A stretch of DNA of 10,684 bases from a virus (lineage: Duplodnaviria > Heunggongvirae > Uroviricota > Caudoviricetes). Made by a program: the position numbers and the translations under genes. The notes below the pieces were generated by a model. It was not told the DNA's origin. It saw only the letters and a program-made list of their open reading frames with translations, and did no database searches. Shown piece by piece: positions 508 to 10,684 of this stretch. The DNA is taken from the IMG/VR virus record IMGVR_UViG_2671180643_000008; one strand, given 5' to 3'. Numbering within the stretch: position 1 is the first letter of the stretch; the number at the start of each line of letters is the position of its first letter.

Positions 508-975
508 ATGAACCGTGTTCTGTGCGTGGTTATCATTGTCCTGCTGGTGGCCTGTGGTGCGCTTAGTCTGGGGCTGAATCATTACCGTGATCACGCCATC
601 ATCTACAAAGAGCAGCGCGATAAAAAAGCCAGTGAGCTGGAGCTGGCGAACGCGACAATTACTGATATGCAGATACGCCAGCGTGATGTCGCTGCATTTG
701 ATGCCAGATACTCGAGGGAATTAGCCGATGCGAGAGCTGAAAATGAAACTCTGCGTGCTGATGTTGCCGCTGGTCGTAAGCGCCTGCGGATCAACGCCAC
801 CTGCCCCGGTACCGTGCGTGAAGCCACCGGCACCTCCGGCGTGGATAATGCAACCGGCCCCCGACTGGCAGACACCGCTGAACGGGATTATTTCATCCTC
901 AGAGAACGGCTGATGGCAATGCAGAAGCAACTGGAAGGAGCACAGGAATATATCCGTACCCAGTGTATACCGTGA
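508..975 (+). CDS. Rz: Rz i-spanin (inner-membrane spanin subunit)
   Basis: Translation MNRVLCVVIIVLLVACGALSLGLNHYRDHAIIYKEQRDKKASELELANATITDMQIRQRDVAAFDARYSRELADARAENETLRADVAAGRKRL... has an N-terminal TM helix, a coiled-coil periplasmic domain, and the conserved NHYRD and PRLADTAERDYF motifs of lambda Rz. The ORF tool's upstream Met at 451 is rejected in favour of ATG 508, which sits just before the TM segment. Confidence 0.85.
   Translation: MNRVLCVVIIVLLVACGALSLGLNHYRDHAIIYKEQRDKKASELELANATITDMQIRQRDVAAFDARYSRELADARAENETLRADVAAGRKRLRINATCPGTVREATGTSGVDNATGPRLADTAERDYFILRERLMAMQKQLEGAQEYIRTQCIP
728..913 (+). CDS. Rz1: Rz1 o-spanin (outer-membrane lipoprotein), embedded in the +1 frame of Rz
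   Basis: Encodes MRELKMKLCVLMLPLVVSACGSTPPAPVPCVKPPAPPAWIMQPAPDWQTPLNGIISSSENG: a signal peptide with lipobox LVVSAC and a proline-rich mature part, very similar to lambda Rz1. GAGGGA lies 8 nt upstream of ATG 728. Entirely inside Rz in another frame. Confidence 0.8.
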   Translation: MRELKMKLCVLMLPLVVSACGSTPPAPVPCVKPPAPPAWIMQPAPDWQTPLNGIISSSENG

Positions 976-1261
976 TGTTTTGTTATGAAGGTGTTACTGG
1001 TAACGTTAAGGTAATTTAACAAAGAGTCAGTTCCGGACTTTATAGTGTGCTCAGTTCATGGCCAAAAACGATTTCTGTGATAAATATTTTGAATATTATT
1101 TACAGGTAAATGGAGTGGGGCACATGGATAGAAATATTACAATAGAGAATGAAGTATATGCCCGTATTGTATGGGCAGAGAAGGCAAAAACACGGTAATT
1201 CCGTGTGTTGCCATGATACCTGATTGGCAGAATAGTTGTTTGGTTTTGAGTATATAGTCAG

Positions 1262-1420
1262 CGTTTTTTGTTCAGTAATTGCTCCCTCAAAAAATAATAA
1301 AATAAGGTGATTATTTTTGTTTATTATTTAGTTTTTTTTGTGTGTTGTTTTATTGTTTTTGCGTGGTTTGTTTTTTATTGTTATTTCATTAAGGGAAGGT
1401 AAATTCAGGATGGCAGTCTG
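1262..1420 (+). promoter_or_regulatory. AT-rich, T-tract-rich upstream region of the PerC-like gene with a candidate sigma70 promoter
   Basis: Phased T-tracts (TTTTTTGT, TTTTATTGTTTTTG, etc.) suggest curved DNA. Candidate -35 TTGTTA (1378-1383), 16-bp spacer, -10 TAAATT (1400-1405). GGAGG at 1430-1434 lies 6 nt before ATG 1441. Confidence 0.3.
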
Positions 1421-1440
1421 TAGATAATCGGAGGTCACTT

Positions 1441-1755
1441 ATGCTACATGATCACGTGGCAGAATGTCTGGAGAAAAAAGGACTGTACCGGAGAGCAGCT
1501 GAACGATGGGCAAAAGTGATGGTACAGCTAAGTGATGACCAGAAAAGAAAAGTGGCGGCACAGAAACGAGCAGAGTGTTTGCGTAAGGCGCGCCGGACTC
1601 CGGTTTCACCGGTGAACCTGACCGAAATAAAACAAGCGGTCAACAGACTACATTCTGAGTTGGGAATGGGATTTGAAGAGCGGCGGGTATTCCGACGATA
1701 TAAAGGGACAGGAGAACAGAATACGTCCGGAAACGCGCGGTCAAAAAAATGCTAA
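1441..1755 (+). CDS. PerC-family transcriptional regulator (Pch-like, 104 aa); accessory moron gene
   Basis: Translation MLHDHVAECLEKKGLYRRAAERWAKVMVQLSDDQKRKVAAQKRAECLRKARR... carries the N-terminal A-E-x-L-E-x-K-G-L-(Y/W)-R-R-A-A-x-R-W signature that I recall for PerC and prophage Pch proteins. The 104-aa length matches Pch. Strong SD, AT-rich upstream DNA, and a position between lysis genes and cos. Confidence 0.72.
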   Translation: MLHDHVAECLEKKGLYRRAAERWAKVMVQLSDDQKRKVAAQKRAECLRKARRTPVSPVNLTEIKQAVNRLHSELGMGFEERRVFRRYKGTGEQNTSGNARSKKC

Positions 1756-1791
1756 AAAATATCTGAGAGAGTTATTGCCTGTTACCATAAG

Positions 1792-1820
1792 AAAAAGCGA
1801 CTTTAGTGGTCGCTTTTTGT
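1792..1820. terminator. Bidirectional intrinsic terminator between convergent genes
   Basis: AAAAAGCGAC (1792-1801), loop TTTAGTG, GTCGCTTTTT (1809-1818): a 10-bp perfect stem flanked by an A-tract 5' and a T-tract 3', so it can act on either strand. Lies between the stop of the PerC-like gene (1755) and the 3' end of the minus-strand gene (1837). Confidence 0.55.
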
Positions 1821-1836
1821 GTCATATATAAGTCGT

Positions 1837-2061
1837 TTAAGTAAACCTGTCTGAACAGGTGCTCTGGTCGTGTTTGTCTTTGTTGGGTACAAATTGAGAA
1901 TATTTTTCATTAATTAATCTTCTTCTGCAGGCTTCAATAACCCACGCTGAAAAATTACCTGAACCTTTCAGGTCAAGAGCGATGTTAATTTGTTCAATTA
2001 TCTGGTTTGGAAATCGGATGTTGCGGGTTGTTGTTCTGCGGGTTCTGTTCTTTGATGACAT
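1837..2061 (-). CDS. Hypothetical ribbon-helix-helix (Arc/MetJ/CopG-like) DNA-binding protein next to cos
   Basis: Translation MSSKNRTRRTTTRNIRFPNQIIEQINIALDLKGSGNFSAWVIEACRRRL... has a basic N-terminal tail, then a beta-strand (IRFP) and two helices, the typical RHH pattern. I recall a similar ORF in the equivalent position at the right end of lambda. Confidence 0.6.
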   Translation of the reverse strand: MSSKNRTRRTTTRNIRFPNQIIEQINIALDLKGSGNFSAWVIEACRRRLINEKYSQFVPNKDKHDQSTCSDRFT

Positions 2062-2268: not shown

Positions 2269-2280
2269 GGGCGGCGACCT
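2269..2280. other. cosN cohesive-end site (12-nt GGGCGGCGACCT); cosQ expected just upstream (about 2230-2268)
   Basis: GGGCGGCGACCT followed by CGCGGGTTTTCGCTATTTATGAAAATTTTCCGG matches the first 45 nt of the lambda genome as I recall them. The upstream ...GGTCCTTTCCGGCGATCCGACAGGTTACG resembles the lambda right end. Lies immediately upstream of the terminase genes. Confidence 0.8.
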
Positions 2281-2314: not shown

Positions 2315-2416
2315 ATCCATGTCCGGTTTCTCTTCAAGTTAACTATATGAAAAATATAAAAACAGGTCTTCTGTGAACCGGACATGAACAAAAAACAGAC
2401 ATGTAAACCGGACATG
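2315..2416. repeat. cosB-like region: three copies of AAACCGGACATG (one inverted, two direct) flanking an AT-rich putative IHF bend site
   Basis: Copy A is inverted (CATGTCCGGTT, 2318-2328); copy B is 2376-2386 and copy C is 2406-2416 (AACCGGACATG). The AT-rich segment 2335-2365 between A and B parallels the lambda R3-I1-R2-R1 layout. Located between cosN and the small-terminase start. Confidence 0.45.
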
Positions 2417-2463
2417 ACCGGTTTTGTTGTGATTGTGAGGTGAGAGTTTTTGCGAGGTGAGGA

Positions 2464-2973
2464 GTGGCTACGCAGACTGAAGTTGCCAGGCATTTAAGTC
2501 TGACCGATCGCCAGCTTCGCAGATTGCAGAAATTGCCGGGTGCCCCGATATCAAATAAGCGAGGGCAACTGGATCTGGATGCCTGGCGCGATTTTTACAT
2601 ATCGTATCTGAGGAGAAGTAAAAACGATGTGCCTGATGGCGATAGCGAAGACGACTATGAGGAGAAATTGCTTATTGCCAGATGGGAACTGACAGCAGAA
2701 CAGGCTGTTACACAGCAGTTAAAAAATGAGGTGTCAAAAGGAAAACTTATTGACACCGGGTTCTGTATTTTTGCCCTCAGTAAGCTGGCAATGGCGTTAT
2801 CCAGTACGCTTGATTCCATCCCTTTATCCATGCAGCGACAGTTTCCTGATTTAACACCGCGCCATCTTGACCATCTGAAAACCCTTATTGCTAAGGGGGC
2901 AAATCAGTGTGCGCGGGCAGGGGATAAATTACCGGATTTACTCGATGAATATATCAGAGCAACAACTGAATAA
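2464..2973 (+). CDS. nu1: Terminase small subunit (gpNu1 family)
   Basis: The C-terminal two-thirds (...TGFCIFALSKLAMALSSTLDSIPLSMQRQFPDLTPRHLDHLK...LPDLLDEYI) is strongly similar to lambda gpNu1 as recalled; the N-terminal HTH region (MATQTEVARHLSLTDRQLRRL...) is divergent. GTG start at 2464 follows an in-frame TGA at 2458-2460 and an AGG-rich SD. The 3' end overlaps the A start by 29 nt. Confidence 0.85.
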   Translation: MATQTEVARHLSLTDRQLRRLQKLPGAPISNKRGQLDLDAWRDFYISYLRRSKNDVPDGDSEDDYEEKLLIARWELTAEQAVTQQLKNEVSKGKLIDTGFCIFALSKLAMALSSTLDSIPLSMQRQFPDLTPRHLDHLKTLIAKGANQCARAGDKLPDLLDEYIRATTE

Positions 2974-4874
2974 TATGATGGCTGCCGTTTCGGTTGCGCT
3001 GCAGCCTCTGGTCAGGGTTGTACCAATGACGGCAGTTGAATGGGCTGATCAAAATTATTATCTGCCTAAAGAATCCTCATACGGTGAGGGCGAATGGAAA
3101 ACGCTGCCATTCCAGATCGCCATCATGAACAGCATGGGGAATGATCAGATCCGCACTGTTAATCTGATTAAATCTGCCCGTGTTGGCTATACAAAGATGT
3201 TGCTGGGGGGTGGTCGGGTATTTTATTGAGCATAAATCCCGAAACAGTCTGCTTTTTCAGCCCACGGATTCTGCCGCTGAAGATTTTATGAAGTCTCACG
3301 TGGAGGCGACGATTCGGAACGTGCCATGCCTGAAAGACCTTTCCCCATGGCTGGGGCGTAAACATCGTGACAATACTCTCACGCTGAAACGCTTTTCATC
3401 GGGCGTCGGTTTCTGGTGCCTGGGCGGCGCTGCCGCCAAAAACTACCGTGAAAAATCCGTGGACGTGGTCTGCTATGACGAACTTTCCTCGTTCGAGCCG
3501 GATGTCGAAAAAGAGGGCTCGCCAACCCTGCTGGGGGATAAGCGTATTGAGGGGTCGGTGTGGCCAAAATCCATTCGCGGCTCGACGCCTAAAATCAAAG
3601 GCACCTGCCAGATCGAAAAAGCCGCTAACGAGTCGGCGCATTTTATGCGTTTTTATGTGCCCTGCCCGCACTGTGGGGAGGAGCAGTATCTGAAATTTGG
3701 CGATGAGTCCACGCCTTTTGGGCTTAAATGGGAGAAGGACAGCCCTGAAAGTGTTTTCTACCTCTGTGAACATCATGGCTGCGTGATCCATCAGTCTGAA
3801 CTGGACCAGAGCAACGGGCGGTGGATCTGTGAAAACACGGGCATGTGGACCCGTGACGGTCTGACGTTTTTCAGCGCCCGGGGTGATGAAATTCCGCCGC
3901 CGCGCTCCATCACGTTCCATATCTGGACGGCGTACAGTCCGTTCACCACCTGGGTACAGATTGTCTATGACTGGCTGGATGTACTGAAAGATCCCAACGG
4001 CCTGAAAACCTTTGTGAACACCACGCTGGGCGAGACCTGGGAAGAGGCCGTGGGCGAAAAACTCGATCACCAGGTACTGATGGATAAGGTGGTGCGTTAC
4101 ACGGCGGCGGTGCCTGCCCGGGTGGTTTATCTGACGGCGGGCATTGACTCGCAGCGAAACCGTTTTGAGATGTATGTCTGGGGATGGGCTCCGGGAGAGG
4201 AAGCCTTTCTGGTGGATAAAATCATCATTATGGGGCGTCCTGATGAGGAAGAGACGCTGTTACGTGTGGATGCGGCGATCAACAAAAAATACCGCCATGC
4301 GGATGGCACCGAAATGACTATTTCCCGTGTCTGCTGGGACACCGGGGGGATCGATGGTGAAATTGTTTATCAGAGATCAAAAAAACACGGTGTTTTCCGG
4401 GTGCTGCCGGTAAAAGGCGCATCTGTCTATGGCAAGCCGGTGATCACCATGCCAAAAACCCGCAATCAGCGGGGCGTGTATCTGTGTGAAGTGGGAACGG
4501 ACACCGCAAAAGAAATTCTCTATGCCCGTATGAAAGCCGATCCCTCGCCTGCGGATGAAGCCACGTCGTATGCCATCCGTTTTCCTGATGATCCGGAGAT
4601 TTTTTCGCAGACAGAGGCGCAGCAACTGGTGGCGGAAGAGCTGGTGGAGAAGTGGGAAAAAGGAAAGATGCGTCTGCTGTGGGATAACAAAAAGCGGCGT
4701 AACGAAGCGCTGGACTGCCTGGTGTATGCCTACGCGGCATTACGTGTGTCCGTGCAACGCTGGCAGCTTGATCTGGCTGTACTGGCAAAATCCCGGGAAG
4801 AAGAGACGACCCGGCCAACCCTGAAAGAACTGGCAGCGAAGCTGTCCGGAGGAGTGAATGGTTACAGTCGCTGA
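2945..4874 (+). pseudogene. A: Terminase large subunit (gpA family), interrupted by a +1 frameshift at a G6 run (3205-3210)
   Basis: ATG 2945 gives MNISEQQLNNMM...TAVEWADQNYYLPKESSYGEGEWKTLPFQIAIMNSMG...VGYTKMLLGGGRVFY and stops at 3227-3229. The remaining roughly 550 aa (WGVVGYFIEHKSRN...CPHCGEEQYLKFGD... to TGA 4872-4874) are in the next frame. Both parts are colinear with lambda gpA as recalled. Removing one G from GGGGGG restores K-M-L-L-G-V-V-G-Y-F-I-E-H-K. Confidence 0.8.

Positions 4875-10404: not shown

Positions 10405-10684
<280 letters not shown>

Follow-up and report, generated by a model that had tools for sequence, protein, structure and literature searches.

We consider it highly probable that the stretch of DNA analysed here (the window, 10,684 bp) carries a copy of pchA as a moron, that its product Pch displaces H-NS at LEE1 and switches on ler, and that the host is LEE-positive. 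The window is the entire contig CYBI01000078.1 of the draft E. coli assembly GCA_001283725.1 and has no host genes aboard. Gene identity, position, composition contrast and distribution come from the present analysis, while the mechanism and its control by host signals rest on published work with the identical protein.

Identity of the gene

A first-pass annotation of the window had noticed a 104-aa ORF with the PerC/Pch N-terminal signature, and had proposed searches of its product against PerC/Pch profiles and proteins. The ORF (1441-1755, plus strand) comprises 104 codons from ATG to TAA, and residues 10-23 of its product read LEKKGLYRRAAERW, in agreement with the quotation in that annotation. 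The product matches the Pfam PerC profile (PF06069) over its full length (positions 1-89 of 90) with E 3.8e-44 and 149.3 bits, where the cut-off is 22.6; the match is far above chance level, and the observation is confirmed as real. The interpretation offered in the first-pass annotation is supported as well.

The protein comparison gives the same picture. All 104 residues (104/104) are shared with PchA (ECs_1091, NP_309118.1), which is encoded on prophage Sp4 of E. coli O157:H7 Sakai. The identity extends to the DNA: window positions 990-1769, i.e. the pch ORF with 450 bp of 5′ sequence, have the same base as the Sakai pchA locus throughout, and the longer segment 1-1918 and the Sakai lysis-pchA segment disagree at five positions only, namely: 525, 697, 805, 989 and 1770. 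The same protein is listed in RefSeq as WP_001303878.1 (‘PerC family transcriptional regulator’), and UniRef names it ‘PchABC family transcriptional regulator’, with the exact sequence present on at least 1000 contigs. Furthermore, the perC1 (= pchABC) PCR primers match the window exactly at 1479-1727 and delimit 249 bp, which is the published amplicon size (PMC3491183). The gene is thereby identified, on its sequence, as the known pchA allele and not as a novel Pch-like gene. The pchA gene, its prophage position, mechanism, regulation and LEE association are all published and already known.

Position of pch in the prophage

The gene is encoded on a lambdoid prophage between Rz/Rz1 and cos, as the first-pass annotation had claimed: Rz/Rz1 lie 5′ of it, and GGGCGGCGACCT and Nu1 lie 3′ (Table 1). 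The Rz ORF opens at a TTG at 451, and its annotated ATG is at 508; PGAP calls the equivalent of Rz in the annotated genome L001 (19509-19976) a lysis protein. The flanks of cosN agree with the lambda ends. From their place between cosN and Nu1, the repeats containing CCGGACATG would be cosB-like R sites, that is, putative binding sites of the terminase small subunit. Nu1 is followed, in order, by gpA, W, the portal gene, the S49 prohead protease gene, D, E, FI, FII and a Z-like tail gene, and annotated prophages share the gene order of the window.

Table 1. Features of the pch region, with base composition.
Feature	Position	Strand	GC (%)	Evidence or remarks
Rz spanin gene; end of lysis cassette	508-975	+	54.7	Pfam Phage_lysis E 2.8e-48
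Rz1 lipoprotein gene, inside Rz	728-913	+		Pfam Rz1 E 1.7e-21
AT-rich spacer and pch upstream regulatory region	976-1440	+	33.3	990-1440 same as Sakai pchA upstream
Shine-Dalgarno GGAGG, strong	1430-1434	+		six bases 5′ of pch ATG
pch gene (group-1 Pch, pchA allele; PerC-family regulator)	1441-1755	+	49.2	PF06069, PchA identity, RefSeq, UniRef, perC1 primers
Segment	1756-1836		34.6	
Hairpin AAAAAGCGAC-TTTAG-...-GTCGCTTTTT	1792-1818			RNA fold: 11-bp stem, centroid -14.2 kcal/mol, z -2.2
DUF3950 / YlcI-YnfO family gene, 74 aa, convergent with pch	1837-2061	-	38.7	Pfam DUF3950 E 1.3e-17, NCBIfam YlcI_YnfO_N, phrog_949
Segment	2062-2463		40.8	
cosN cohesive-end sequence GGGCGGCGACCT	2269-2280	+		direct reading of sequence
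Three repeats containing CCGGACATG (2318-2329 inverted, 2372-2387, 2402-2417)	2318-2417	+		repeat families D1 and I4
Terminase small subunit (Nu1-like); head module start	2464-2973	+		Pfam Phage_Nu1 E 1e-18, PGAP ‘terminase small subunit’
Head genes			55.5	

The window had also been described as containing an AT-rich island around the gene. This holds for the flanks of pch (33-41% GC), and the ORF itself, at 49.2% GC, does not share it; the contrast in composition between these flanks and the GC-rich head genes (55.5%) that had been pointed out is evident. The DUF3950 gene, just 5′ of cos, shares the low-GC segment with the pch flanks. Phage 21, ev017 and lambda-like phages match the window in the head module only, from 3019 on, and pch is absent there. 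It is, then, an extra gene between conserved modules that close relatives do not have, and its composition is unlike that of its neighbours. We classify pch as a moron, an accessory gene that the lambdoid prophage carries at its right end, in the interval between Rz/Rz1 and cos.

State of the prophage

The gene for the large terminase subunit (gpA, window 2945-4874) contains, in a G-run near 3205-3212, one G more than intact homologues, and is thereby split into ORFs of 94 and 528 aa. The 528-aa fragment is the same in GCA_001283725.1, in GCA_001277675.1 and in Logan ERR134513, the last of which was made by an independent assembler. An assembly error is rejected on this account, and the frameshift, being shared across the three assemblies, is probably real and inactivating. 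The prophage would then probably be unable to package DNA.

At positions 10584-10684 the contig closes with an IS3-family element, of which the left end is included (TGTAGTGGCACAC...); of 5426 E. coli genomes, 2088 have this IS end. The element interrupts the Z-like minor tail gene at 10583, after codon 60, and four codons from the IS bring the remaining ORF to 64 aa. A sister contig, CXZX01000063.1, which is 99.93% identical, has no IS insertion; there the Z-like gene is intact and the sequence continues into the tail genes. An exact search of a collection of species-representative genomes for the prophage-IS junction gave no match. A match to the Rfam isrC sRNA at 10652-10684 lies inside the IS end; it is sub-threshold (26.9 bits against a gathering cut-off of 39) and 3′-truncated, and probably reflects IS-related sequence in the Rfam model.

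Expression signals of pch

The interval given for pch in the first-pass annotation opens at 1262, which is the start of a T-rich tract 5′ of the gene (about 1262-1400) and lies outside the ORF. Within it, positions 1310-1386 form an imperfect T-rich tandem with a period of 21-25 bp, about three copies and 72-74% matches, which may plausibly be a putative curved or H-NS-binding tract. Between Rz and pch there is in addition a 46-aa ORF (1058-1198, plus strand) with a full-length match to phrog_2157, a family of unknown function (E 2.7e-37); in the identical region of NZ_CP027550.1 PGAP leaves this ORF without annotation.

A scan with the sigma-70 consensus found two sites where 4.0 are expected by chance, and the sole sigma-70-like site in the spacer 976-1440, at 1208-1236, is no better than chance; no promoter is claimed. 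On the 3′ side, the hairpin at 1792-1818 is flanked by an A-run and a T-run on direct reading. It was found by folding, and the terminator scan left it unflagged. This hairpin is a probable bidirectional intrinsic terminator that would serve both pch on the plus strand and the DUF3950 gene on the minus strand. The pch region gave no match to any RNA family in Rfam.

Taken in isolation, the terminase frameshift, the IS insertion and the want of a convincing promoter in the consensus scan would suit a silent relic, i.e. an intact-looking pch ORF that sits unexpressed in a decaying prophage. We give next to no credence to this, given that the ORF and its 450 bp of 5′ DNA are the same as those of the functional Sakai pchA and that the gene has a strong Shine-Dalgarno sequence. 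In addition, identity to the pch gene is at least 99% in 687 of 688 records from complete E. coli genomes, and the gene shows no trace of decay across them.

Distribution of pch and association with the LEE

Of 5426 complete E. coli genomes, 673 have group-1 pch (three copies at the median) and 697 have the LEE escN-escV segment (taken from Sakai). Co-occurrence of the two was judged from these overall counts and from the overlap of sampled genomes: 3 of 30 sampled pch genomes are also among 60 sampled LEE genomes, where an overlap of 2.6 is expected if every pch host is LEE-positive and of 0.33 if the two are independent. Three genomes, namely MEI003, 2013C-3492 and LSU61, match the window and are LEE-positive. 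The published survey of Steyert et al. agrees with these figures: all EHEC had perC1, as did 24/24 of the LEE-positive, stx-negative isolates outside EPEC1; of the LEE-negative isolates 1/25 had it, and the only ECOR strain with perC1 was the LEE-positive one. Of the perC1-positive isolates, 43/44 are LEE-positive (PMC3491183). Because of the counts and sample overlap, the LEE-positive genomes that match the window and the perC1 survey, the host of the window very probably carries the LEE.

These data bear directly on two other views of the gene. The first is that it encodes a genuine Pch whose main targets in this host are outside the LEE (curli/csgD, flagella, acid resistance or other H-NS-silenced islands), the host being without a LEE or the main role of Pch being elsewhere. 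Many chromosomal Pch sites, including K-12 backbone loci and acid-resistance genes, are mentioned in PMC4456613, citing Abe 2008, and in PMC4764244; over-expression of PchA reduces csgD and biofilm (PMC6265319); and a LEE-negative isolate with perC1 does occur in the survey above. This view is nevertheless very improbable, for group-1 pch and the LEE have nearly equal prevalence, the sampled overlap fits full co-occurrence, only one of the 44 perC1-positive isolates is not LEE-positive (PMC3491183), and the biofilm effect of PchA is itself ler-dependent (PMC6265319).

The second view is that pch serves the phage as a small activator or anti-silencer, which would keep AT-rich late or cos-proximal genes expressible, with LEE activation as a side effect. 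It would account for the orientation of pch, which is that of the late operon, and for its place directly 3′ of the lysis genes; in Salmonella, Klebsiella, Serratia and Pantoea, which lack the LEE, PerC-family genes are likewise present on prophages and plasmids, and PHROGs lists the family among phage proteins. We see only a very slim chance for it. The relatives of the head module (phage 21, ev017, lambda) do without pch, and the group-1 allele, which is nearly clonal, follows the LEE-positive lineages, both in the counts given here and in PMC3491183. Moreover, pch is perfectly kept in a prophage whose terminase gene is frameshifted, and this points to the host, rather than the phage, as the source of selection.

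A protein at least 99% identical to the window Pch is also encoded on nine plasmid records of 59-420 kb (e.g. NZ_CP027549.1, 41195-41506). One of these records is apparently from strain 2015C-4136CT1, the chromosome of which has pch as well.

Sequence conservation and predicted structure of Pch

The PerC family is recognised here by the motif L-E-x-x-G-[LF]-[YW]-R-R-A-A-x-R-W and a conserved Cys about 23 residues later. In an alignment of 47 sequences, R17, A19, A20 and W23 are invariant, and L10, E11, G14, R18, R22 and C46 are at least 90% conserved; the window protein has all of them. A word-indexed protein search found close relatives only, and the wider family was reached by an exhaustive HMMER search, which returned 82 clusters (at 50% identity) at E <=1e-3 and only 14 at <=1e-10. 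The family is thus small. By tblastn, Pch matches plasmid genes with 46-47% identity over residues 2-88, and one of these lies directly 3′ of a gene for ‘protein PerB’. In NCBIfam no model matches Pch, and a sequence search of the PDB with Pch gave no relative at E up to 10.

The AlphaFold model of Pch (pLDDT 82) has four helices and a disordered basic tail, and resembles TPR/MIT-type helical hairpins only. Such hairpins are typical protein-protein adaptors. It may be, then, that Pch is not a conventional DNA-binding activator and that it would remodel the H-NS complex by way of a partner protein or by contacting DNA in an unconventional manner, and further that a pristine pch in a packaging-dead prophage would represent domestication by the host. 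We regard this combined reading, which draws on the predicted model, as unlikely.

Relation to known systems

The closest counterpart is PchA of Sakai prophage Sp4, which has in common with the window the entire protein, the ORF with its 5′ DNA and the position 3′ of Rz/Rz1 in a lambdoid prophage. In Sp4 (NC_002695.2, 33202-35119), however, the lysis-pchA block is inverted with respect to the head genes and abuts IS629, and ISEc8 separates it from the small terminase gene, which ISEc8 truncates. Thus, the reference pchA, too, resides in a rearranged, defective prophage. The window, unlike Sp4, keeps the canonical order Rz-pch-DUF3950-cos-Nu1, and has lesions of its own in the gpA frameshift and the IS3-family insertion.

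PerC of EPEC, encoded by perABC of the EAF plasmid and the founder of PF06069, belongs to the same family and has the same N-terminal motif (LEEKGFYRRAADRW in PerC, LEKKGLYRRAAERW in the window), with about 46% identity to the window Pch over residues 2-88. PerC and Pch are both described as LEE1 activators in PMC4764244. PerC differs in that it is plasmid-borne, lies in an operon 3′ of perA and perB, and has 89 aa without the basic C-terminal tail; in addition, under many conditions EPEC can express the LEE without it, whereas in EHEC Pch is indispensable (PMC4764244).

PchD and PchE of O157:H7 (groups 2 and 3) likewise belong to the PerC family, and their genes lie on prophages or prophage-like elements. 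The LEE is little affected by them, and PchE acts as a repressor of csgD/curli and flagella (PMC6265319, PMC7369912). The window protein is a group-1 allele by its identity to PchA, and is set apart from PchD and PchE by their descriptions. The first-pass annotation had compared the locus with that of bor in lambda, and rightly so: bor is found directly 3′ of lambda Rz/Rz1, and similarly occupies the interval between Rz/Rz1 and cos as an accessory gene from which the lysogen profits. It encodes an unrelated outer-membrane lipoprotein, however, and is on the strand opposite to the late operon.

Proposed mechanism and significance

In a lysogen, pch would be transcribed from a promoter of its own in the AT-rich spacer and transcription would stop at the hairpin at 1792-1818. 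After SOS induction, Q-antiterminated late transcription would also read through pch, since the gene is co-oriented with the late operon (S-R-Rz). Such read-through would come without phage spread, because the prophage looks defective. An increase of group-1 pch expression in the SOS response has been reported (PMC6265319), and transcription of pchA is known to integrate host signals through LrhA, Lrp/butyrate/LeuO and NtrC/sigma-S (PMC4456613, PMC10714755, PMC13012123).

The product, small and mostly helical, would bind AT-rich, H-NS-silenced DNA at the LEE1 promoter and displace H-NS, StpA and Hha there, so that ler would be switched on. Together, Pch and Ler would then lift silencing from non-LEE effector genes and from the rest of the LEE, a type III secretion island. 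That prophage Pch proteins activate ler in EHEC, as the first-pass annotation had stated, is well documented (PMC4764244, PMC6265319, PMC4456613). According to Fukui et al., Pch activates LEE1 only under silencing by H-NS/StpA/Hha(/YdgT), lowers H-NS occupancy both in vivo and in a reconstituted complex, and co-activates Ler-dependent promoters; the same authors found no interaction of Pch with H-NS or with Ler (PMC4764244). Full expression of ler and espA and adherence of O157:H7 need group-1 Pch (PchA/B/C) and not PchD or PchE, as summarised in PMC6265319 from Iyoda and Watanabe 2004 and Porter 2005. For the copy in the window we infer the same activation of LEE1/ler via relief of H-NS silencing.

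For the window itself, the value of recognising pch is one of annotation, and the gene raises no new question. Genes of the pchA type are master inputs to LEE expression in EHEC and in atypical EPEC, and the presence of one therefore marks a strain as probably LEE-positive and attaching-and-effacing.
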